DNA of 56,342 bases, filler included, from Bradymonadales bacterium (lineage in GTDB: Bacteria > Bdellovibrionota > UBA2394): assembly GCA_007693605.1 (NCBI GenBank). It is 4 parts of 4 records of this genome, joined end to end, with 100 filler letters (N's around TTAATTAATTAA, not from the genome) between each part and the next. Parts side by side here need not be neighbours in the genome. Positions count along the whole stretch, not along the records: positions 29,277 to 43,054 come from REDG01000016.1; positions 43,155 to 56,342 come from REDG01000050.1; 2 more parts are not named here. One strand, 5' to 3'. Of this stretch, positions 33,500 through 45,987 are shown in pieces; positions within the stretch are counted from its first letter, which is position 1, and every line of letters starts with the position of its first letter. The notes beneath the pieces were generated by a model. That model did not search any database and was not told the origin of the DNA. It saw only the letters and a list, made by a program, of their open reading frames with translations. The translations under genes were made by a program, and so were the position numbers.

Positions 33500-33520
33500 T
33501 GAGTGCTCAGTTGGCGGAAT
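33500..33520 (+). repeat. Direct repeat of the tRNA-Leu 5' end (att-like)
   Basis: TGAGTGCTCAGTTGGCGGAAT, identical at 36553-36573 and 36685-36705. Confidence 0.88.
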
Positions 33521-33537
33521 GGTTTTAGAGAACCCCC

Positions 33538-34827
33538 TCAATCCAGACTCCTTAGACTACTTCGAAGCCCAGAAATGATAACCCCAATCAGATCACCCGA
33601 AACTGCAGAGGGGTAGCTTTGGAAAGATTTTTCCAATGACTTCGCCTTCTCACTGACTTCTTGGAGCATCTCTTCAAAAGCTTCTTTAGAAACATCAGAC
33701 GCCTTGGCGGATTCATACCAATGGCGGTTTTGAATTTCCGACAATCGGTAGTGCCTGGGAGACCCGACTCCCATAGCGAGTTTTGCTTCTTTTTTTTCGA
33801 TCTGGCGGGCCTGAAGAGCAGGGTGGAGGCTTAAGATGTCGTACAAAGGTGTTAGGCGAAAGCCTGACTTTGAAGGGAAAACACTGAAATTTTTCGCATG
33901 CCCATCTGTTCCGGCAAGCAAATAGAATAGGATCTGAGCTTTGAAAAAAGTAGCTCTATCTCTGTCCCTATAGTCAGAACTGTTTAAAAAATCCATGATC
34001 TGCTTGATCCCGACCCCGCCTCGATTTTCATACTTCTTTGTATAGGGAATGCCTAGGGCTTGGCAGAGATCTTCTTGAGGAAGTCTTGTCAGACGGGAGC
34101 CAATCCACTTTCTATCAAATCTTTCAACGACCAAACATCGAATGTCTTTGAAGTCCAAAACTTGCGACTGGGGCACCTCAAAACCAAAGTGTTTCGCAAT
34201 TTGAAGACATACCCACTCATTCTCTGCGCTCATGGTCATATCAATTCGATTCGGCAATATGCCCAAGCGAGGCTTCAAGATATGTGTTGAGGGTGTAACT
34301 CCCAAGGGACGACACCATCGATTATTCAAATAAAGAAGAGCGGTCTTTTCTTGAGCTCCTGCGATAGAAATTCGAAACTCATCACTCTCATTCATACCCA
34401 GGGGGGAGATCGAGAGATTCGAAAGAATTCTATGAATCTCCTCTTCATCAAGTGTCTTGAACTTAAGGCCTTCGGCCTTTGGAATCTCTTCATCTTTGGG
34501 GATAAACTGCAATGCCCCGACACAATCTCTTCCCATCAGGCTTAGAAGCTCGACAGGATCGGTGCTGTTTGCTTGAAACTTCTGCGCGAGTCTTTCGAGG
34601 ATGACTTCATTGTCAGGAAGTAGATTGCCAAAAAAAGAGCTGACAATGGCTCCCGTATAAGGCGCGTCCTTAATGGGCATGCTCAGCGATATTGGCAATG
34701 ACTTTCCGGCGATCCAGGCAGGCGTGTACTCAAAGCTCAATCTTCCTGAGCTCCCACGAACTAAAGTGCCGACCCTCTCGCCATTAAGAAGAACACTCAA
34801 ATGAATGCTGAGGGATCGCTTCGCCAT
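33538..34827 (-). CDS. hipA: HipA Ser/Thr kinase toxin
   Basis: LPISLSMP, NLLPD, GRDCVGAL, SIAGAQEK, ERFDR, DGHAKNFS, LTPLYD. Confidence 0.95.
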   Translation of the reverse strand: MAKRSLSIHLSVLLNGERVGTLVRGSSGRLSFEYTPAWIAGKSLPISLSMPIKDAPYTGAIVSSFFGNLLPDNEVILERLAQKFQANSTDPVELLSLMGRDCVGALQFIPKDEEIPKAEGLKFKTLDEEEIHRILSNLSISPLGMNESDEFRISIAGAQEKTALLYLNNRWCRPLGVTPSTHILKPRLGILPNRIDMTMSAENEWVCLQIAKHFGFEVPQSQVLDFKDIRCLVVERFDRKWIGSRLTRLPQEDLCQALGIPYTKKYENRGGVGIKQIMDFLNSSDYRDRDRATFFKAQILFYLLAGTDGHAKNFSVFPSKSGFRLTPLYDILSLHPALQARQIEKKEAKLAMGVGSPRHYRLSEIQNRHWYESAKASDVSKEAFEEMLQEVSEKAKSLEKSFQSYPSAVSGDLIGVIISGLRSSLRSLD

Positions 34828-35078
34828 TAGGTTTCTGGATTGCCTTTCGTTCTGGAGCGAATCACTAACTCAAGATCTAAGCCCGCCAAGAGTTTAAACA
34901 TTGTGGCCAGACGCGTTTTTTCGGCACCCCCTTCCACTTGAGAAATCGTGGGTTGTTTTACGCCTGATCTCTTGCTGAGCTCAACCTGCGGCCATTTCTG
35001 CTCGCTTCGAAATCGCTGAATGGCGGCGCCAAGTTGCTTCGCATTTCTAATAATGACTTTGGTTTTAGTCGGCTTCAT
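34827..35078 (-). CDS. hipB: HipB Xre-HTH antitoxin
   Basis: HTH QVELS..SGVKQPTISQVE; coupled to hipA. Confidence 0.9.
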   Translation of the reverse strand: MKPTKTKVIIRNAKQLGAAIQRFRSEQKWPQVELSKRSGVKQPTISQVEGGAEKTRLATMFKLLAGLDLELVIRSRTKGNPET

Positions 35079-35081
35079 ATC

Positions 35082-35153
35082 TATCCTTTACTGGGAATAA
35101 ATTGATTTTATCCTTTAATGGGTATAATTGCAACTTATCCCCTATTCGGCATA
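35082..35153 (-). promoter_or_regulatory. hipBA promoter with three HipB-type operators
   Basis: TATCC-N8-GnATA 18-mers at 35082, 35109, 35136 (27-bp period); minus-strand TTGCAA-N17-TAAAAT at 35105-35133. Confidence 0.8.
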
Positions 35154-35409
35154 GTCACAGCAAGAAAATGGGATAATTACAGCTCGTTACAAAACAATCT
35201 CCAGCAACTGCCCACTCCCGAAGGTCCGTCCAATGGGGCGCACAAACCGAGACGCGATACAGGCCCTCACTTACCAAGCCACCCCGTACTCAGGTACAGG
35301 CATGTTGCAGGATATCCTCATGAGACAAGGCAGCCCCACCTATGGGAGCTTGAGTCTCATCGAAATATTTGCGGGCCTTAGAATGACTAAGAAAAGTCGG
35401 CTCTCTGCT

Positions 35410-35425
35410 TGGCAAGGAGCTTGCA
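35410..35425 (+). promoter_or_regulatory. sigma54 promoter
   Basis: TGGCAAGGAGCTTGCA, 60 bp upstream of the 35485 start. Confidence 0.6.
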
Positions 35426-35484
35426 ATTTCATGAGGGTGGCCGTATGAGAGTGACGGGACTAACCTTAACTGTGGAGAACCGAT

Positions 35485-36282
35485 ATGAAAGCATTTACTG
35501 GAATCATTTCAACAGGCCTACTAAGCCTAACTTTTGCAACTCAAATCTTTGCTGAGGACGAAATCTTTGCTGAGGACGAAATCCTTGCTAAGGACAGTGA
35601 CCTTGCTGTGCTCCTTAAAATTTTGGGAAGGGAGAATATAAATCGCCTTAAGCGACCAGAGCCCCTCATTAGTGAGCTTAGTGAGCTTGCAGAAGAGTTG
35701 AGGAGAACAGGGTATGCCATGCATAGGTATGAATGGCGTGAAGATTCATACTCTGTTAGATTTCTTCAGGCCCCTCGGATACCATGGCAGGTAGAGGAAG
35801 TGTTGAAACGAGATCGAGCAGGACTCCTAAAGCGTCTACCAGATTCGCCTGAAGTTGTTGCCTTCCGCTGGGTTGCCCGTAGGATGTGGTCTACCAAAGA
35901 GGGCTTGTCAGCTGATCCGGGTGAGCTTTTTTTCAAGAATCTTGAAGCCGCAGTGACGGATCAGACGCTTAATCCAAAGGCAAGAGCGACTGTCGTTAAG
36001 ATCCTTAAGGAACTTTTCCCGGAAGAGGTAGAGGAATCTGGCTTCAGGGGAGTCATCGCACCTACAGAGGACGGCATGCTCGATGTTTCCGAAGCCGTAA
36101 TTGAATTGATTGAAGGCGCCTCTGCGGGAAACATTGTGAATGTGACCGTCATCCATAAACATGGAAGTTCACAGGATAAACATGGAAGTTCACAGACTGC
36201 GACTTTTGTGGTCGGCCCCAAATCCAACACAGGGGAAGCAGACGATTTTTACGACCCCGCGCCAAAGAAACAACAGAGATAG
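35485..36282 (+). CDS. Hypothetical secreted protein with short internal duplications
   Basis: Signal peptide; IFAEDE x2 and KHGSSQ x2; SD GGAG. Confidence 0.75.
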   Translation: MKAFTGIISTGLLSLTFATQIFAEDEIFAEDEILAKDSDLAVLLKILGRENINRLKRPEPLISELSELAEELRRTGYAMHRYEWREDSYSVRFLQAPRIPWQVEEVLKRDRAGLLKRLPDSPEVVAFRWVARRMWSTKEGLSADPGELFFKNLEAAVTDQTLNPKARATVVKILKELFPEEVEESGFRGVIAPTEDGMLDVSEAVIELIEGASAGNIVNVTVIHKHGSSQDKHGSSQTATFVVGPKSNTGEADDFYDPAPKKQQR

Positions 36283-36320
36283 AGACCGCTCGCTGCCTCA
36301 GTTGCAGGTCAAAGATTGCA

Positions 36321-36357
36321 AAGAGAGGGCCTAGCCAAGCTAAGCCCTCTCTTTTTT
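36321..36357 (+). terminator. Intrinsic terminator
   Basis: AAGAGAGGGCCTAGC-CAA-GCTAAGCCCTCTCTTTTTT. Confidence 0.75.
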
Positions 36358-36369
36358 GCAAAAGAAAAA

Positions 36370-36398
36370 GGGTCGGGAGACGGAAGTGCCAGACTAGC
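36370..36398. repeat. Dispersed repeat, family A, copy 3 (inverted)
   Basis: GGGTCGGGAGACGGAAGTGCCAGACTAGC. Confidence 0.9.
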
Positions 36399-36438
36399 GC
36401 AGGCTGCCAGAGCAGGTAGGCCTTGGCGGTTCATGGGA

Positions 36439-36707
36439 AATTGCTCGGCCCGATCGAGGGCCGGTTTATTTATCCAGGGGCGTCTACCAATTCCGCCTGG
36501 TCTTTGCGAGTGAGCTGTATTATTCAATCCCCCTGTAGATTCCGCGATCTACTGAGTGCTCAGTTGGCGGAATTGCTCGGCCGGATCGAGGGCCGGTTTA
36601 TTTATCCAGGGGCGTCTACCAATTCCGCCTGGTCTTTGCGAGTGAGCTGTATTATTCAGTTTCCCTGTAGATTCCGCGATCTACTGAGTGCTCAGTTGGC
36701 GGAATTG
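36439..36707 (+). repeat. 2 x 132-bp tandem repeat with sense and antisense tRNA-Leu segments
   Basis: Units start at 36444 and 36576; near identical; the last unit runs into the tRNA. Confidence 0.92.
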
Positions 36708-36774
36708 GTAGACGCGCTAGATTCAGGTTCTAGTGGGGAAACCCGTGGTGGTTCGAGTCCACTACTGAGCACCA
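36690..36774 (+). tRNA. tRNA-Leu(CAG)
   Basis: Acceptor GCTCAGT/ACTGAGC, anticodon arm CTAGA-TTCAGGT-TCTAG, long variable arm, GTTCGA T-loop, encoded CCA. Confidence 0.97.
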
Positions 36775-37035
36775 AATCACTTCCGCAGGTCGCAATAAGC
36801 CCAAATTCGGTAGCCCTGCTCAAGCCTGAGAAGGCCTCAAGATAGCAATTTTAAGCCGATTTGAGCTTTTTACAAAATGTGATAAGCCCAGCCCTAAGAT
36901 GAGGGCTCGGTTGCTGTGGGCATTTCTTTTTTTTCTCCCCTTGGGGCGAGTGAGGGCCGTGGCGGCCGCCAGCACTCTCTTGCAGCTCGGATTCTCTTGC
37001 ACATTTTTGATAAGCCATCTGCCGAAAGGCTTTTA

Positions 37036-38112
37036 GTGAAGAAATCAGCCCAGCCTTCTTCTGAAAAAGCCGATTGGATGCGAAGCTGCCTTGAACTTGC
37101 TGACTCTCCGAAAGATTCTTGCCTGCCCAATCCCCGAGTGGGGGCTTTGATTCTTCATCGCAATAAAGTCATATCAAAGGCTTTTCATGCCGGCCCCGGC
37201 AAGGCTCATGCTGAGGCTTTGGCGATTCAGCGCGCACGAAGTAAGGGCTTTCGTAAGTTTTCTGAAGCCAGTCTTTACATCAACCTGGAGCCCTGTTGTC
37301 ATCTCAACAAACGAACTCCGCCATGCCTACCCCTCGTGCTCGACTGTCAGTTTAAAGAAATTTTCATCGCTCATCCCGACCCCAACCCTCAAGTGGCAGG
37401 TCGTTCGATTCGCGCCCTTCGTCGTTCAGGGGCAAAAGTCGAGGTCGGCCTTCTGAAAGAAGAGGCTGAGGATTTGAATCAAGCCTTCCTGAAAAACCAA
37501 CAGGAAGGCATGCCTTTGGTGAGACTGAAGGCGGCGATGAGTTTTGACGGGCGATGGGCCTGTCCGAACGGAGAGTCCAAGTGGATCAGCGGAGAGAGAA
37601 GCCGAGCGCTCGTCCATCACTGGCGCGCGAAATCGCAGTTTATTGGCATTGGCTACGAGAGCCTAAAAAGAGATGGCTCAAGGCTAAACGCCCGACTGGG
37701 TCGTCGATCGAAGCCAAAGAACATCCTTGTTTTTGGAGGCCCCAAACGGCTTGGCAAAAATCTGCCGGTCATCAAAGCTAACGGAATGGATCGCGTCCAC
37801 CAGATTCCCTCTGGGGTCGACCTTCGCAAGAGCCTCCAAACTCTCTATAAGGAGAAGGGAGTTTGTGAGATTTTCTTAGAAGGCGGGCCCCGACTTGCGA
37901 CCTCTTTTCTGGAGGCGGATCTCGTGGATCATTGGATGATCTTCTATGGTCGCGGTTTAATTGGGGGTTCTGCCCGCTATACGATTGGAGCAGACTGGGC
38001 ATTGAAAAGCCCTCAAGAATCGATTAAGTTTCAGCCGCAACGAGTGGAACTCCTCGGGTCGGATGTCTTCGTTGAAGGAAAACTTCATGTTTACAGGTCT
38101 CGTACAAAGTAA
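37036..38112 (+). CDS. ribD: Riboflavin deaminase/reductase RibD
   Basis: PNPRVGA, HAE, LEPCCH..RTPPC, EGGP; start uncertain (37036 or 37078). Confidence 0.93.
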   Translation: MKKSAQPSSEKADWMRSCLELADSPKDSCLPNPRVGALILHRNKVISKAFHAGPGKAHAEALAIQRARSKGFRKFSEASLYINLEPCCHLNKRTPPCLPLVLDCQFKEIFIAHPDPNPQVAGRSIRALRRSGAKVEVGLLKEEAEDLNQAFLKNQQEGMPLVRLKAAMSFDGRWACPNGESKWISGERSRALVHHWRAKSQFIGIGYESLKRDGSRLNARLGRRSKPKNILVFGGPKRLGKNLPVIKANGMDRVHQIPSGVDLRKSLQTLYKEKGVCEIFLEGGPRLATSFLEADLVDHWMIFYGRGLIGGSARYTIGADWALKSPQESIKFQPQRVELLGSDVFVEGKLHVYRSRTK

Positions 38113-38713
38113 GGGCATTATGCTGCGGTCTGAGCCGCTGGCGCAGGCTAGTCGTTGGCGCATTCGGTCTGAACTCGCCCAGAGAATCAAGGGGGGCGAC
38201 AGCGTCTCCGTCAACGGCGTTTGCCTGACCGCGCTTGAACCCACTCCCTCTGAATTCAGCGTAGAGATCTCGCCAGAGACTCTGCAAAGAAGTTCGTTCT
38301 CTCACCTAAAGCCCAATCAGAGCTTAAATCTTGAGTTGCCCGCCACCCCTCAGAGCTTTTTGGGGGGGCATTGGGTTCAGGGCCATGTCGATGGAGTGGG
38401 CGAGATTCTTCAAGTTGAAAAGCTCGGGGACTTTCATTCGATCGTCATACAGCTGCCGAAGGCTTTGATGATCTGGATGCCCCCGAAGGGAAGTGTCTGC
38501 GTTGATGGAGTAAGCCTGACGGTCAACGAGACTGAGTCAGAGAAAAATCAAATCAGTTTGATGATTATTCCACAGACTTGGCACTCAACCATCTTCTCGG
38601 GCTATTCGATCGGGACCCGGGTGAATATTGAGGCCGACAGTTTTGTGAAGTCCATCCACCATTTTTGGACTGAGCACCTACGCACTCAACCAAATTTAGG
38701 GAGTCGACCATGA
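38087..38713 (+). CDS. ribE: Riboflavin synthase alpha chain
   Basis: MFTGLV, GDSVSVNGVCLT, GGHWVQGHVD. Confidence 0.95.
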   Translation: MFTGLVQSKGIMLRSEPLAQASRWRIRSELAQRIKGGDSVSVNGVCLTALEPTPSEFSVEISPETLQRSSFSHLKPNQSLNLELPATPQSFLGGHWVQGHVDGVGEILQVEKLGDFHSIVIQLPKALMIWMPPKGSVCVDGVSLTVNETESEKNQISLMIIPQTWHSTIFSGYSIGTRVNIEADSFVKSIHHFWTEHLRTQPNLGSRP

Positions 38714-39933
38714 GTTTTGATCCAGTCCCTGAACTTCTTGAAGAGCTGGCGGCGGGTCGAATGATCATTCTTCTCGACGACGAAGATCGAGAGAATGAAG
38801 GAGATTTGGTTTGTGCGGCAGACAAAGTGACCCCAGAGCTCATTAACTTTATGGCGATGCACGGTCGTGGCTTGATTTGCCTAAGCCTTGCGCCAGAAAT
38901 TTGTGACCGACTGAAACTCCCTCTAATGGTGGATCAGAACCGCTCCCCGTTTCGAACAAACTTCACGATAAGCATCGAAGCAAGAGAGGGAGTGACGACG
39001 GGAATTTCAGCCGCCGATCGCGCCAGAACCGTTCAGGCAGCCGTTCAGCCTGATGCAAAACCAGAAGACTTAGTGTCTCCGGGCCATGTGTTTCCTCTTC
39101 GAGCTGAGATGGGAGGCGTTCTGAAGAGGGCCGGACAAACAGAAGGCAGTGTCGATCTTGCCAGTATGGCAGGCCTTCAGGGAGCGGGGGTGATTTGTGA
39201 AATCTTGAAAGAAGACGGCAGCATGGCCCGTCGACCCGAGCTCGAAGTCTTTGCGAAGAAGCATCAACTGAAGATGGGGAGCATCGCGGACCTGATCGCG
39301 TACCGGATGCGTCACGAGTCTTTGGTTCGGCGAGAAGCCAGTGCCGAAATCCCAACCGACTTCGGCAATTTTAAGATGATTGCGTATTCCAATGTACTCG
39401 ATGGCAATCAGCATGTGGCTTTGGTGAAAGGAGAAATATCTGAAGACAAGGCCTGCTTGGTTCGAGTTCACTCTGAGTGCCTCACCGGAGATCTTTTTTC
39501 ATCTCATCGCTGCGATTGTGGGGATCAGTTGTTTGCCGCCATGGCCCAAATTGGGCGGGCGGAATCTGGAGTGCTTCTCTATCTTCGCCAAGAAGGCAGA
39601 GGCATTGGTTTGGTGAATAAGCTTCGAGCTTATCAACTTCAAGACGAGGGACTTGATACAGTGGACGCCAACCACCGCTTGGGTTTTAAAGCGGATTTAA
39701 GAGACTATGGTATTGGCGCTCAAATCTTGAGAGATCTCTCTGTTCGCAAGATGCGTCTTCTCACCAACAACCCCCGAAAGATTGTGGGGCTTGAAGGCTA
39801 CGGAATGGAGCTGGTCGAAAGAGTGGCTCTCGAGATCTCTTCGAAACCCAAGAATCTGCACTATCTCCGCACGAAACGAGACCGATTGGGCCACCTGCTC
39901 AACTTGACTGAAAAGCAGAGACCGTCTTCATGA
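38710..39933 (+). CDS. ribBA: Bifunctional DHBP synthase/GTP cyclohydrolase II
   Basis: DDEDRENEGD, RVHSECLTGD, RCDCG, QEGRGIGL. Confidence 0.97.
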   Translation: MSFDPVPELLEELAAGRMIILLDDEDRENEGDLVCAADKVTPELINFMAMHGRGLICLSLAPEICDRLKLPLMVDQNRSPFRTNFTISIEAREGVTTGISAADRARTVQAAVQPDAKPEDLVSPGHVFPLRAEMGGVLKRAGQTEGSVDLASMAGLQGAGVICEILKEDGSMARRPELEVFAKKHQLKMGSIADLIAYRMRHESLVRREASAEIPTDFGNFKMIAYSNVLDGNQHVALVKGEISEDKACLVRVHSECLTGDLFSSHRCDCGDQLFAAMAQIGRAESGVLLYLRQEGRGIGLVNKLRAYQLQDEGLDTVDANHRLGFKADLRDYGIGAQILRDLSVRKMRLLTNNPRKIVGLEGYGMELVERVALEISSKPKNLHYLRTKRDRLGHLLNLTEKQRPSS

Positions 39934-40358
39934 TCGCTATTTTCACAACACGATGGAACGAGCTCTTCTGTCAGAAACTCGAAGCCGCCGCAAGAGCTCG
40001 ATTACAGGAGGCGGGCTATTCGGTAAAACACTGGGTTGTACCGGGCGCGCTAGAGATCCCCTTGGCGGTGGAGTGGGCTCTCGATCAGCATCCGAATCAG
40101 GTCGAGGCTGTGGTTGCCTGTGGTGTCATTCTAAAGGGGGAAACCTATCACTTTGAACTCGTGGCTAATGAAACTTCTCGCGCTCTCACCGACATTGCTC
40201 TCAGAAGAAAAATCCCGATAGGTCACGGAATTTTGGCCTGCTACAACTTACAGCAAGTTGAAGATCGAACTCAAGGCTCCAAAAATAAGGGGGCCGAAGC
40301 AGCCTTGGCCGTGCTGGAAATGCTTCAGCTGAAGAAAGAGATAGGAGAACCGAAATGA
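39930..40358 (+). CDS. ribH: Lumazine synthase
   Basis: VPGALEIP, GETYHFE, NKGAEAA. Confidence 0.95.
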   Translation: MIAIFTTRWNELFCQKLEAAARARLQEAGYSVKHWVVPGALEIPLAVEWALDQHPNQVEAVVACGVILKGETYHFELVANETSRALTDIALRRKIPIGHGILACYNLQQVEDRTQGSKNKGAEAALAVLEMLQLKKEIGEPK

Positions 40359-40735
40359 AAACTGAACTTCCTCCGGTTGTGATCACCCACGCTGCCGTCA
40401 AGGTGTCGAGCGTTCAAAAATCAATGCAGTTTTTTCAAGAGGCCTTAGGCCTAAAGCCCGCCTGGTCCGGCCAAAGTGACTGGGGCATGGCGAAGTCTAA
40501 CGGATCGACGCTCGCCTTTATTGAAAAAAATGAAGAAATCCATCCGCCGCATATTGGTTTTGTAGTACCCCAGAAAGAGGATGTTGATCTCTTTCATAAA
40601 AACCTTAAGGCCTTAGGCGCTAAAGAGGTCGGGGAGCCCAAGGATCATCGAGATCAAAGCCGATCCTTTTACTTTAAAGATCCTGACGGCAACCAGTTCG
40701 AGCTCCTGTGGCTTCCTGAAAATTTGACGCGATAA
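40355..40735 (+). CDS. VOC/glyoxalase family protein
   Basis: H..VKVS, HIGF, FYFKDPDGNQFE. Confidence 0.9.
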   Translation: MKTELPPVVITHAAVKVSSVQKSMQFFQEALGLKPAWSGQSDWGMAKSNGSTLAFIEKNEEIHPPHIGFVVPQKEDVDLFHKNLKALGAKEVGEPKDHRDQSRSFYFKDPDGNQFELLWLPENLTR

Positions 40736-40788
40736 AGCCGGCCGGCTCTTCTCGTGACAAGAAATGGAAATTGCGTAGACTTAAAAAC

Positions 40789-41604
40789 ATGAAGTCCTTT
40801 GTCCTATTGAGCGTTTTGATGATGGCCGCAGCCCCGTCCTTTGGGGCCCGAGTCAACATATCTTCAATGAAGACTCTTCATGACCACGAGACCGCCGCAA
40901 AAGCCGAGCTGGCCTTTGACAGAGATGTTTCAGTGGAGAGCTTCAAGGCCTGTAGCCCTCAAGAAAGCCGACCCTTTCCCTCTGAACTCTCCGAAGAGCT
41001 TCAGTCCACGATCTTTATCTCTAGAGAAATGAGAGATCTTCGCAACTGCAGCAGAGACTCCTGCCCTTTCAATTTCACCCCCGACGAAAGGGAGTTGATC
41101 GGCAAGCAATCTTCAGATGCTGAAATTAAGAAAACTTTTTTTCAGTTCTACAATGAGCGAGTGAGTGGAGAGAGAGAGATTGACATCTTTTTTCAAAAGT
41201 TTCTTATTCAAGACGCTCGAAAGGCCTTCTCTGTTTGTGAGTCGAAGGAACTCGATCAGCTCGTTAAGGGGCGGCCCCTAGCATCCTGGCCTTTTTGGCT
41301 ATCTGCCGTTCGATACGATGGTCAAATGCGCCCGACCACGCGACTCACACAAGGCAAACATTTCGTCACGGGCAACGAGCAATGCTTCGCAGAGGCCCTG
41401 GTCTTTTCGAATCATTACGATGTCGAACTGATTAAGGTCTGGTCTTTTCTTCCAAAGGAAAGAAAACTCACGGTGGAGGTACGACATCGAGTGGACTTTT
41501 TAACCACCTGGTTTCGTCGCCTCCAAAAGCCCAGACTCCAATCCGCCCTGGAAGAGGCCCTAGAAAGCGAAGTTCGTCAGTTCTTAGCCTGCCTGCCCAG
41601 TTGA
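40789..41604 (+). CDS. Hypothetical secreted protein
   Basis: Signal peptide MKSFVLLSVLMMAAAPSFG; long ORF. Confidence 0.7.
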   Translation: MKSFVLLSVLMMAAAPSFGARVNISSMKTLHDHETAAKAELAFDRDVSVESFKACSPQESRPFPSELSEELQSTIFISREMRDLRNCSRDSCPFNFTPDERELIGKQSSDAEIKKTFFQFYNERVSGEREIDIFFQKFLIQDARKAFSVCESKELDQLVKGRPLASWPFWLSAVRYDGQMRPTTRLTQGKHFVTGNEQCFAEALVFSNHYDVELIKVWSFLPKERKLTVEVRHRVDFLTTWFRRLQKPRLQSALEEALESEVRQFLACLPS

Positions 41605-41651
41605 GTCCTAAGCTTCAGGCCTGATGTTTTTTACGATCTACAGAGTTAACT

Positions 41652-43054
41652 TCAATCGGATCCATTGAAGGCTTTTGATCGTTCTTCAATGAAGCGCCTT
41701 TGATGGTCAAGGTTTTGGAATTCAGTATACTGTGTCACGCCAAGGATTCGGGGTTCTTGGTTGGGAACTACCTGAAAGACAACCAGATAAGTCCTCTCTG
41801 TATCTTTAACCAAGACTCCTGGCACATGTAAGTCGTTGTTAGAAGTGTGATTGCCATTGGCGATCCTCTTTAGTAGCTCCATGATCTTGGCTTTTCTAGC
41901 CCAATCCAGAGCCTCTATGTCTTCTGAAAATTTAGGATGGACATTGATTCGATTGAAGGTCGCTTGCCAGTCGCTTGCAACACCTGCGCGATCCATGGGT
42001 AGATCCAAGATCTGTTCTTCTGCACCAGGATTTCGCATTGTGACTTGTGGGGCAGTTTGGCGAGCCTCTAACTGATCATAGAGCGCCTCAAACATACTGG
42101 AAAGCTTATCCCTAAGGGCTTCGCTTTTTAGTTGCTTAATTGAATTCATCATCACTTCTCGGTCGGGGATGATTTCAAGTTGATTGACAATCGAGGCGAC
42201 ATGATCTCGATCAAGTGCAATCAGCTCTTCGAGTTCCTCTATGTGCCGAGCAAACTGTTCACTAATTTCCGTCAGTTGATGGGTGTAAATCAGATTGAAA
42301 TGAGATTCCAGCGCATCTAGGATTCGTATGAGTTTGTCTTCAGGAAACTCTTGGCTAATGTCTTCAGCCTCTTGTTGTCTGCTCAGACGAAAGATCACAA
42401 AGCGCCCGCCGTCCTCAGTTTCGACAAATCGAAGGCTCTCATGCCGCATAAATGTGCCCATGGGCACATTTCGATGAGGACCCGCTTCCTCATAAAGATA
42501 GCCATTATTCCAACCGAACCGTCGCAACTTTGAAAGAAAGTCAGATTGAAAAATTTCTAACTGGTACCCGTTGAGGCGAGAACGGTCGAATCTTGGCGAG
42601 CCGAAGGGAATCACGAGATAGTCAACATCTGATGCAGCATTCAACTCCCATATTGTAGGTGAATCCACAGTCAGCAGGGCCTCCAGCTTTGTATCAGCTG
42701 CCCCCTAAATTGATGCGACATCTGCCTGTTCTGCTGAAGGGCTTTCGACTGAGGGTTCAAAGATGAGAGAGTCTCGCCGGGAACTCCCGCGCTGCTGATC
42801 GTGGTCAATATGTGGATCAAGCAGCCTTGGATCCGCATTCTGATTTGTTTTTCTTCCCAGATTGATGACTACAATGCTGTATCGATTCCCCGAAGGTGTT
42901 TCCCATTGAATCTCCGTAGAAAGGTAGTGCTGTCCAAGATACTCAATTGGGGTCACTTTTTCTGTGTACTTCCCACGGTATGTAGATAAGGCATTAAAAT
43001 GGAGTGCGGTCGGGAAACTGGAGTCGAAGTCACTTAGCTTTTGAGCTCGGATCG
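41652..43054 (-). CDS. 5'-truncated protein with an in-frame TAG (42705-42707) and a RelE/ParE-like C-terminal domain; possible pseudogene
   Basis: One frame open from the contig edge to 41652 apart from a single TAG: ...ADVASI*GAADTKL... Confidence 0.6.
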
Positions 43055-43154
43055 NNNNNNNNNNNNNNNNNNNNNNNNNNNNNNNNNNNNNNNNNNNNTT
43101 AATTAATTAANNNNNNNNNNNNNNNNNNNNNNNNNNNNNNNNNNNNNNNNNNNN
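43055..43154. other. Artificial contig linker
   Basis: N44-TTAATTAATTAA-N44. Confidence 0.98.
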
Positions 43155-44326
<1,172 letters not shown>

Positions 44327-44479
44327 ATAAAGTAGCTCAGGTTGTTCACCTCAGCTCTTCAGTTAAATTACTGATGCATTGATTGAATTGAAAATTCCAA
44401 GAAACTGCATAAATGCAGATTTCTCGGCACTTGAGTCAAAACTTTAGACTCTTATTATACGCTCTATCACCTCTTCAAA

Positions 44480-44491
44480 TGTCAAAGAACA
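44480..44491 (-). promoter_or_regulatory. rrn boxA antitermination element
   Basis: Minus strand TGTTCTTTGACA. Confidence 0.75.
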
Positions 44492-44856
44492 CTTCACTCG
44501 CGTTGTTTTGTCACAATGCCGAATGGGAATAGTATGCTTCTACCCAAAACTGAAATCGAAAGGCAACGACGAAAATGAAAATTTTCTGAAATATTTTCAG
44601 GCCCTAGAAAACCCTCCGGAAGGCCTCACTCAAGGACCACATCGAGGGCCTTGATTTCTTGCATTTTGCCACCTACCAGAGTTCCGGACGGAGGCAATTT
44701 TGGGGAGTGGCGATCAACACCAAATAGTTTCAACCAGAGAAGGCCTGGCTCGGCGGATTCGATAGGCCCGCAAATCCTAAAGAGCGGAATGGACAAAATT
44801 TGTCATAAATGCGGGCTTGTTGGCGCCTAAGCCCCGAATTTTACTAGAAACTAGAG

Positions 44857-44872
44857 TGGCTTAGGATTTGCT
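44857..44872 (+). promoter_or_regulatory. Putative sigma54 promoter
   Basis: TGGCTTAGGATTTGCT (GG-N10-GC) upstream of 44911. Confidence 0.5.
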
Positions 44873-44910
44873 CTTTGAAGGACTAACAACGAGTTAAGGA
44901 GTATGGAGCA

Positions 44911-45492
44911 ATGAAATTTTTGATTTTGACCGTCACCAGTCTAATTGCACTAGGTATCGGCGAAGCGGACGCCAGAACGATTAACAAGGGCGACTCTTCG
45001 CTTTTGAGTCAAAGTAACGGGGGAGACCTGAGTGCTTTACCAGGGCCAGCAGAGTTTCAGAGCTGTAGATTGAGGGCAGCTGAGTCAATCCATGAATACT
45101 CACAGTCAAATGATCCTGATCAACTCCTTGAGTTTATAAGTGCAGTGGCAGACGGCCACTGCTCCGGGAGTCTAAACTGCCAGGAACTAATAAACGATTA
45201 CCTCAGCCTAAGACGCAACTGCTCTCGACACTCGAGAGGCATGCAGCACAACAATTATCAAGAGGGTGACTGCGAAACCTGCTCTTCTAAGGCGAATCAA
45301 ATCAATCAATCTTGTGGGGGCTTCGGCGGCGTGAATACGAACTGTGAAGACTGCCTACAGCACGATAGTGCCTGCCACACATGCGACAACAATGCAGTCT
45401 GCGAGTCGCAATGTGAGTATGAACAAACAGAGACCGCCTATCAGGAATGTATCTTAAGCTGTAATGCTCAATTCCCCTGCTTCAGGCAGTAG
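44911..45492 (+). CDS. Secreted Cys-rich protein (16 Cys)
   Basis: Signal peptide ending ADA; SD AAGGAG; CxxC and CxxxC pairs. Confidence 0.8.
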   Translation: MKFLILTVTSLIALGIGEADARTINKGDSSLLSQSNGGDLSALPGPAEFQSCRLRAAESIHEYSQSNDPDQLLEFISAVADGHCSGSLNCQELINDYLSLRRNCSRHSRGMQHNNYQEGDCETCSSKANQINQSCGGFGGVNTNCEDCLQHDSACHTCDNNAVCESQCEYEQTETAYQECILSCNAQFPCFRQ

Positions 45493-45512
45493 AACCGCTC
45501 GTAGTCAGAAAA

Positions 45513-45588
45513 TGGTGGACCCAGACGGGATCGAACCGACGACCTCCTGAATGCAAATCAGGCGCTCTCCCAGCTGAGCTATGGGCCC
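45513..45588 (-). tRNA. tRNA-Ala(TGC)
   Basis: GGGCCCATAGCTCAGCTGGGAGAGCGCCTGATTTGCATTCAGGAGGTCGTCGGTTCGATCCCGTCTGGGTCCACCA; G3:U70 pair. Confidence 0.97.
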
Positions 45589-45875
45589 ACTTCGTTCGGG
45601 CCCACAACTCAGCTGAACGCGCCTTCTGTTCAGGCGCTCCTCTTTCAAGTTCGCCTCCGGCTCAACCAGCTGCCCTATGGGCCCACTTCGTTCGGGCCCA
45701 CAACTCAGCTGAACGCGCCTTCTGTTCAGGCGCTCCTCTTTCAAGTTCGCCTCCGGCTCAACCAGCTGCCCTATGGGCCCACTTCGTTCGGGCCCACAAC
45801 TCAGCTGAACGCGCCTTCTGTTCAGGCGCTCCTCTTTCAAGTTCGCCTCCGGCTCAACCAGCTGCCCTATGGGCC
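45589..45875 (-). repeat. 3 x 96-bp tandem repeat with sense and antisense tRNA-Ala segments
   Basis: Identical units at 45589, 45685, 45781 directly abutting the tRNA 5' end. Confidence 0.95.
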
Positions 45876-45987
45876 TTCCTTACTCACTTTCAAACAAATG
45901 AGTCGTCACCAAACTATTCCGAGCTTGGCTTCCTTGCCAAGTCAAATCCCTCTCAATTCAGAAGCTTTGCCAAGGGCCTAAAAAAAT

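Follow-up and report, generated by a model that had tools for sequence, protein, structure and literature searches.

REP/BIME units served by REP-associated tyrosine transposases (RAYT, Y1 HUH enzymes) are gene-less hairpins that amplify in tandem and rely on an enzyme in trans. In IS110 bridge RNAs, TIGR arrays and the internal guide of group I introns, a guide pairs across both sides of a junction, while T-box leaders and the E. coli tyrT RtT are structured non-coding units tied to tRNA, RtT being tandem and holding a tRNA end. The small GIY-YIG protein SsnA, in the available part of PMC11893778, binds single-stranded DNA hairpins while ignoring RNA and double-stranded DNA, depends on a C immediately following the palindrome and cleaves a few nucleotides upstream; 159 of the 3919 islands in Islander have 5′ fragments, according to the portion of PMC4383910 at hand. 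The unit described here was found in a window of 56,342 nucleotides (the whole stretch of DNA that was analysed, in four joined parts) from the Bradymonadales bacterium assembly GCA_007693605.1, a 2.19-Mb, 90% complete genome. The two tRNA genes of the window, tRNA-Leu(CAG) on contig C58 and tRNA-Ala(TGC) on contig C59, are each preceded by an array of short units combining a copy of the tRNA 5′ end (the decoy), a hairpin and a sequence antisense to the cognate tRNA.

Arrays at tRNA-Leu and tRNA-Ala

Both arrays are real and both tRNAs are intact. An initial annotation of the window had proposed decoy-hairpin-antisense arrays at these two genes; this layout was confirmed, except that the unit contains an additional sense copy of the tRNA (positions ~21-30 in Ala). 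The features are the following:

36435..36557, + strand: Leu unit 1, with worn decoy, hairpin (36444-36464), antisense (36480-36497) and spacer
36558..36689, + strand: Leu unit 2, 132 nt (decoy, GC hairpin, U-rich tract, antisense, spacer)
36558-36575, + strand: decoy of Leu unit 2, tRNA 1-18
36576-36596, + strand: GC hairpin of Leu unit 2, followed by the U-rich tract
36612..36629, + strand: antisense of Leu unit 2, exact to tRNA-Leu 9-26 and spanning the 18/19 junction
36630-36689, + strand: spacer of Leu unit 2
36690..36774, + strand: tRNA-Leu(CAG), intact (tRNA call)
45513..45588, − strand: tRNA-Ala(TGC), intact (tRNA call)
45589..45684, − strand: 96-nt Ala unit closest to the tRNA (decoy, hairpin, purine linker, sense copy, antisense, spacer)
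45684-45666, − strand: decoy of this unit, tRNA 1-19
45664-45650, − strand: its hairpin, with tandem G-A pairs and a GGA loop, followed by the purine linker
45639-45630, − strand: its second sense copy, tRNA ~21-30
45624-45598, − strand: its antisense, followed by a 9-nt spacer
45685..45780, − strand: Ala unit 2 (sequence comparison)
45781..45875, − strand: Ala unit 3, whose decoy begins at tRNA position 2

The Leu array consists of two copies of 132 nt that are 97% identical and contain two exact 18-nt antisense copies of tRNA 9-26, the first copy having a worn decoy and keeping the rest. With its U-rich, terminator-like tract, the Leu unit is a variant that goes unmatched by the covariance model (R2) used below. 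The three Ala copies follow one another at 96-nt spacing, are likewise 97% identical, and their antisense pairs with tRNA positions 1 to ~29 using G-U pairs and one 2-nt gap. Predicted folding of both regions beats every shuffle (z = −5.7 for Leu and −8.7 for Ala).

Structure and occurrence of the unit

The unit opens with a decoy of tRNA 1-18; a 6-bp hairpin and an A-rich linker lead to a second sense copy (tRNA ~21-28), which is followed by the antisense and a spacer. The whole spans 84-168 nt (mostly ~95-140 nt). The old 5′ end of the tRNA is kept upstream as the decoy, and a new tRNA 1-18 follows the element. The antisense extends from position ~26-30 down to position 10 of the cognate tRNA, covering the D-arm (10-26). 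The core forms a three-way junction in which P1 pairs decoy 10-18 with the antisense, P2 is the hairpin GT-NNNRCC-NAA-GGYNNN-C, and P3 pairs the sense copy with the antisense. P2 itself reads as a T, a 6-bp stem topped by CC, a 3-4-nt loop, the return strand and then a C. In an alignment of 12 sequences, 87.1% of the cells were paired with 24 double-sided changes, a level reached in none of 500 shuffles, and five of the six P2 pairs varied on both sides, bearing in mind that kinship inflates such scores and that the structure was drawn from the same 12 sequences. Twenty-eight different P2 stems occur in 49 loci of the host's family, with CC at the top in 42, C after the stem in 39 and GT before it in 35; four of 53 loci yielded no hairpin, and the counts include three picks that look wrong (L002, L452, L457). 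GAA or AAA accounts for 25 of the 37 triloops in these loci, and triloops of this type are DNA-type hairpin loops. A second P2 subtype has tandem G-A pairs, as in the Ala unit of the window.

The antisense follows the cognate D-loop even at positions 19-21, bases that are left unpaired in the junction. Its mismatches comprise 11 G-T against 2 A-C among 442 cells, which indicates that the sense strand is the one that pairs, with the proviso that many elements came from an exact-pattern search biased toward perfect matches. Folding energies of the sense and antisense strands showed no bias (15 and 19 of 31), and no internal promoter was enriched in 50 spacers (p = 0.54). A third sense copy in the spacer was detected weakly (6 of 31 at p < 0.05). 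Extension of the antisense to tRNA position 1 as a general rule was rejected, 84 of 324 pairs reaching it against 75 expected (p = 0.12).

Once one spurious ARAGORN call had been removed, the source genome counted 31 tRNA genes, 11 of which carry a unit or a remnant. Aligning the upstream flank of each gene as the initial annotation had proposed, we found antisense scores above those of all 150 random windows at 10 of the 28 tRNAs with at least 120 nt of flank, namely Leu-GAG, Leu-CAG, Pro-TGG, Arg-ACG, Arg-TCT, Ile-GAT, Phe, Asn, Ala-TGC and Thr-GGT (a remnant); the eleventh, Arg-TCG, is split over two contigs, its array at the end of C49 and its tRNA at the start of C15. Each tRNA has one to three copies. 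The motif of P2 has six matches in this genome, five of them inside tRNA units, and is thus not dispersed. The earlier suggestion of a genome-wide, templated process stands as regards tRNA specificity and templating on the cognate tRNA, for about one third of the tRNAs rather than all.

Searching genome contigs with an exact pattern returned 21 loci, with every decoy in front of a tRNA; by record, 14 were Saccharibacteria-type, one Peribacteria, two Bacillota and four titled Deltaproteobacteria or Bacteriovoracaceae. Exact patterns matched 3 of 301 genomes of the host's own phylum and 3 of 401 Patescibacteria genomes, one of the latter three being a true element; a decoy-plus-hairpin pattern was absent from 251 Patescibacteria genomes. 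In a metagenome scan, at least five clear elements and at least one worn element were present among the 120 stretches listed, and viral contigs yielded 32 and 13 pattern matches with no element among them. Model R2 matched 13 of the 14 genomes of the host's family and 5 of 93 genomes in another phylum, four of these five being real. Of 32 R2 hits inspected in the two groups, 24 lay before a called tRNA, 6 ran into contig ends and 2 were false, and 16 of a further 20 were elements. Twelve family genomes were confirmed by inspection of R2 hits and a thirteenth separately, leaving G008 without a confirmed element; relatives thus carry the element, at different tRNAs. The layout is the same at many tRNA types and in several phyla, while the occupied tRNAs differ from genome to genome, even within a genus, and a tRNA occupied in one species may be free of the element in another of the same genus; of 28 Saccharibacteria Lys-CTT loci, 3 are filled. 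Other assemblies also contain tandem copies, but most copies elsewhere are single, and tandem arrays are thus secondary.

Variant leaders were also observed. Two at tRNA-Gly(GCC) (L195, L196) have a decoy of 1-14 and a long perfect hairpin with no clear D-arm antisense, and other 5′-decoy types (L313; L245; L006, L468) include hairpins in place of the anticodon arm and another hairpin family inserted at decoy position 12-13. One genome (G000) has copies of tRNA 3′ ends with palindrome-rich inserts, some in tandem, in the 3′ flanks of many tRNAs (Ser(TGA/GGA/GCT), Gly-GCC, Arg-TCT, Arg-ACG, Phe, His, Cys and Asn); its Ser-TGA and His 3′ elements carry a T-arm antisense, a mirror-image design. 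An IS110 transposase gene lies inside a 3′ element of tRNA-His (L329, 598-1716).

Two further features accompany the arrays of the window:

33500..33520, + strand: extra copy of five leader bases and tRNA-Leu 1-16, 3.2 kb upstream of tRNA-Leu
45913..45940, − strand: sigma70-like site preceding the Ala array, recognised by consensus alone (9 of 12)

The tRNA-Leu 1-16 copy and the Leu array bracket a 2.9-kb stretch (33500-36400) that holds hipA (33538-34827), an adjoining short helix-turn-helix-like frame and a 265-aa open reading frame (ORF) of no assigned function, and in which no integrase was seen. Shortly before the Leu array, a 28-nt repeat (36370-36397) matches the inverted ends (L027, 1335-1362 and 2118-2146) of the host genome's RAYT gene, which lies near tRNA-Gln. 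Directly downstream of tRNA-Leu lies an ordinary riboflavin operon (36916-40358), with ribD identified by Pfam, the other genes presumably as their position suggests, and no Rfam match to the FMN riboswitch. In 43155-45588, a 193-aa Cys-rich ORF (44911-45492, opposite strand) separates tRNA-Ala from the 23S gene; the 16S gene and tRNA-Ile are on another contig.

Origin and mode of action

We put at about even the chances that the unit is a gene-less, non-autonomous selfish DNA element of ~100 nt residing in the tRNA D-loop between positions 18 and 19. Among the ideas put forward initially, a non-autonomous tRNA-targeting mobile DNA fits best. We infer a mechanism in which P2, on single-stranded DNA, would be recognised by a trans-acting nuclease or strand-transferase, the leading candidate being a small Ssn-like GIY-YIG protein of tRNA-lodged cassettes and the alternative an HUH enzyme. 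The antisense would act as a splint on target 10-26. Decoy and true 10-18 have the same sequence, so that branch migration on the antisense would set decoy G18 beside true G19, and insertion and excision could then be one and the same strand exchange. In the transcript, P1 and P3 might form first and sequester the antisense from the tRNA for the time that RNase P needs, and recombination between the 18-nt direct repeats would then enlarge or shrink tandem arrays of units. Such a splint-guided element would account for the topology, for the invariant junction, for the patchy distribution and for the rules that the hairpin obeys. Linkers resemble one another more within genomes (0.47) than between them (0.40; permutation p = 0.0015), which fits spread among tRNA genes. 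The left end of the element also resembles that of tRNA-lodged cassettes encoding small GIY-YIG proteins. Such genes occur in 89 of 151 Patescibacteria genomes; of 97 hits in 92 retrieved loci, 79 lie no more than 350 nt from a tRNA on the same strand. Thirty-five gene-tRNA pairs displayed a 5′ tRNA copy with an inserted hairpin, the gene and then the intact tRNA, some cassettes having 6-bp CC-NNN-GG hairpins in the D-loop. More tentatively, and as a possibility rather than an expectation, we propose a family of self-guided ~100-nt elements, each with a DNA or RNA splint to both sides of its insertion that is rewritten for each tRNA gene, and with an enzyme borrowed in trans, which would amount to a natural insertion system that is guided by nucleic acid and can be reprogrammed.

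The absent partner enzyme is the weak point of the splint-guided element, and several results weigh against it. No small GIY-YIG gene was found in the 14 family genomes, where each of the 22 Pfam hits fell in a frame 217-640 aa long, a 94-sequence GIY-YIG hidden Markov model found nothing small in the source genome, and one of four relatives gave only weak matches. Conversely, none of the 35 GIY-YIG cassettes has a D-arm antisense close by (one high score lay 421 nt off), model R2 matched none of 100 GIY/Y1 loci, and the published degenerate SRM pattern occurs in none of 30 cores. Y1 transposases are absent from four element-carrying genomes, and Y1 genes do not track the element. The 78 neighbouring ORFs are ordinary genes with no nuclease, reverse transcriptase or tyrosine integrase family among them. 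No precise pair of filled and empty sites could be mapped. The near-identical Lys-CTT copies sit in close relatives (96% marker identity for three), so that they do not show horizontal spread; horizontal homing as read from these copies was dropped. A more distant Lys-CTT carrier has 78% marker identity and 94% identity over element and tRNA. Finally, an Asn element retains P1, P2 and the antisense across two genera in spite of having lost decoy 1-9, which also fits host selection. Among other enzymes considered, reverse transcriptase is missing from the source genome, at 90% completeness, and present in four other carriers, DUF559 is absent from five genomes, and two serine recombinases lie downstream of two tRNAs. 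Of the carriers outside the family, one has a single small GIY-YIG gene away from tRNA and another has cassettes.

The main rival, which we regard as unlikely, is a host RNA switch on tRNA maturation. The leader would alternate between a three-way junction, which liberates the cloverleaf, and a state in which the antisense takes the D-arm and the decoy the acceptor stem, and would thereby set the amount of tRNA that matures. The tunable maturation control put forward initially gains from predicted folding: at equilibrium, all 31 precursors with a single unit have the antisense paired to the true D-arm, decoy 1-7 occupies the acceptor stem in most, and the captured fold lies 6.6-22.9 kcal/mol below junction plus cloverleaf (median 16, n = 26), energies that leave aside tertiary structure, modification and kinetics. 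The unit lies downstream of a promoter-like site (a consensus match), its structure is retained in genomes where no partner enzyme was found, and RNase P control by a leader works in synthetic constructs, as reported in the accessible part of PMC8925977. Such a switch sits poorly with a tRNA set that varies by genome and follows no amino-acid logic, and with P2 loops that are mostly of 3 nt; the unit shows no ligand-binding features. Element-bearing tRNA genes appear single-copy in the assembly, and the productive fold must therefore be attained, probably through the earlier transcription of P1 and P3. Two RNA runs matched the Ala region at conserved rRNA and tRNA patches alone, where the bases were foreign; no transcript and no organism-specific coverage were seen. 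The idea, also raised initially, that the unit is a decoy for anticodon nucleases is unsupported, since the unit has no anticodon arm.

Less likely again is a scar, namely the left end of a GIY-YIG cassette minus its gene plus an inverted copy produced by template switching during insertion or repair, persisting only because P1 and P3 neutralise it. Topology and hairpin type are indeed shared with such cassettes, worn copies exist (Thr-GGT with antisense alone, a Lys-CTT with decoy and hairpin and no antisense), and partial duplications of variable length occur among elements. Yet the geometry is fixed across phyla, the 28 different P2 stems remain paired, and the antisense tracks the cognate tRNA at the very D-loop bases that the junction leaves unpaired. 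Still more doubtful is a tiny tRNA intron or RNA-mobile element, whose antisense would be an internal guide aligning decoy 1-18 with tRNA 19-76 for splicing or its reversal, or else the site where a fragment of the tRNA 5′ end binds as primer. The antisense does straddle the 18/19 junction and the decoy makes the acceptor stem in the stable predicted fold, but an intact tRNA follows, some units lack decoy 1-9, the alignments hold no conserved catalytic core, the source genome has no reverse transcriptase and the antisense does not generally reach position 1. An assembly or fold-back artefact has a negligible probability and is excluded for practical purposes, for although several arrays lie at contig ends and the only DNA run holding the region is possibly the source sample, copies differ by substitutions, independent assemblies of many genomes carry the element with compensatory changes, and in that one run the Ala unit behaves as a collapsed piece (depth 25.8 against flanks of 10.3-12.1, ~2.3×).

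If a guided mini-element, the unit would be among the smallest known site-specific parasites and would point to an enzyme that directs DNA insertion to wherever a short internal guide base-pairs, possibly a programmable one. If an RNA switch, it would represent a naturally occurring leader controlling tRNA maturation through the D-arm, so far synthetic only in the literature found. Either way, the unit would account for assembly breaks and pseudo-tRNA fragments that turn up repeatedly in uncultured bacteria.

Comparison with known systems

As the initial annotation had it, no named element is known to have this layout: an Rfam scan of the window and 12 related loci brought only tRNA and rRNA to threshold, and the literature searched (few subscription papers and no supplements) contains no description of it. 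The element departs from each family compared in a defining trait. CRISPR was rightly set aside, the units being 97% identical over their full length with no variable spacers between constant repeats, as was the T-box; unlike T-box and RtT, the element has no Rfam match, lies on the 5′ side and pairs with the D-arm rather than the anticodon or NCCA. IS110, TIGR and group I systems differ in that the element has no protein gene and no catalytic core, and a guide in cis that is retuned for each tRNA; no cognate recombinase or Tas gene was found beside the guide among the neighbouring ORFs, and the only IS110 seen lies in the 3′ element at tRNA-His. The phage GIY-YIG homing endonuclease SegB is likewise tied to tRNA loci and segmental amplification, but is a gene-encoded double-stranded DNA nuclease with no hairpin-antisense unit in the part of PMC13096335 available. 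tRNA-targeting islands share the intact tRNA and the displaced 5′ fragment on its upstream side; the element is far smaller (84-168 nt against >2 kb), has no tyrosine integrase among the 78 ORFs, carries an internal antisense and crosses over in the D-loop, whereas islands use anticodon and T-arm subsites (PMC4383910, same portion).

Gene-less hairpins, tandem amplification and, as proposed here, an enzyme in trans recall REP/BIME. The element nevertheless occupies one fixed site in tRNA genes, has a long target-specific antisense and no dispersed intergenic copies, and does not flank RAYT; the host RAYT has its own, different ends, and Y1 is absent in four carriers. With the Ssn NTS/SRM, the element shares a short hairpin of single-stranded DNA type whose stem is preceded by GT(C) and followed by C (PMC11893778, same part), the C directly following the palindrome in 39 of 49 loci. 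Small GIY-YIG genes, putatively related to Ssn, also sit in tRNA genes with similar hairpins. The element differs in having no flanking or co-occurring small single-domain GIY-YIG gene in the family and in not being dispersed. Whereas the SRMs, in the available text of PMC11893778, where the word tRNA does not appear, have no target-complementary arm, the element carries one.

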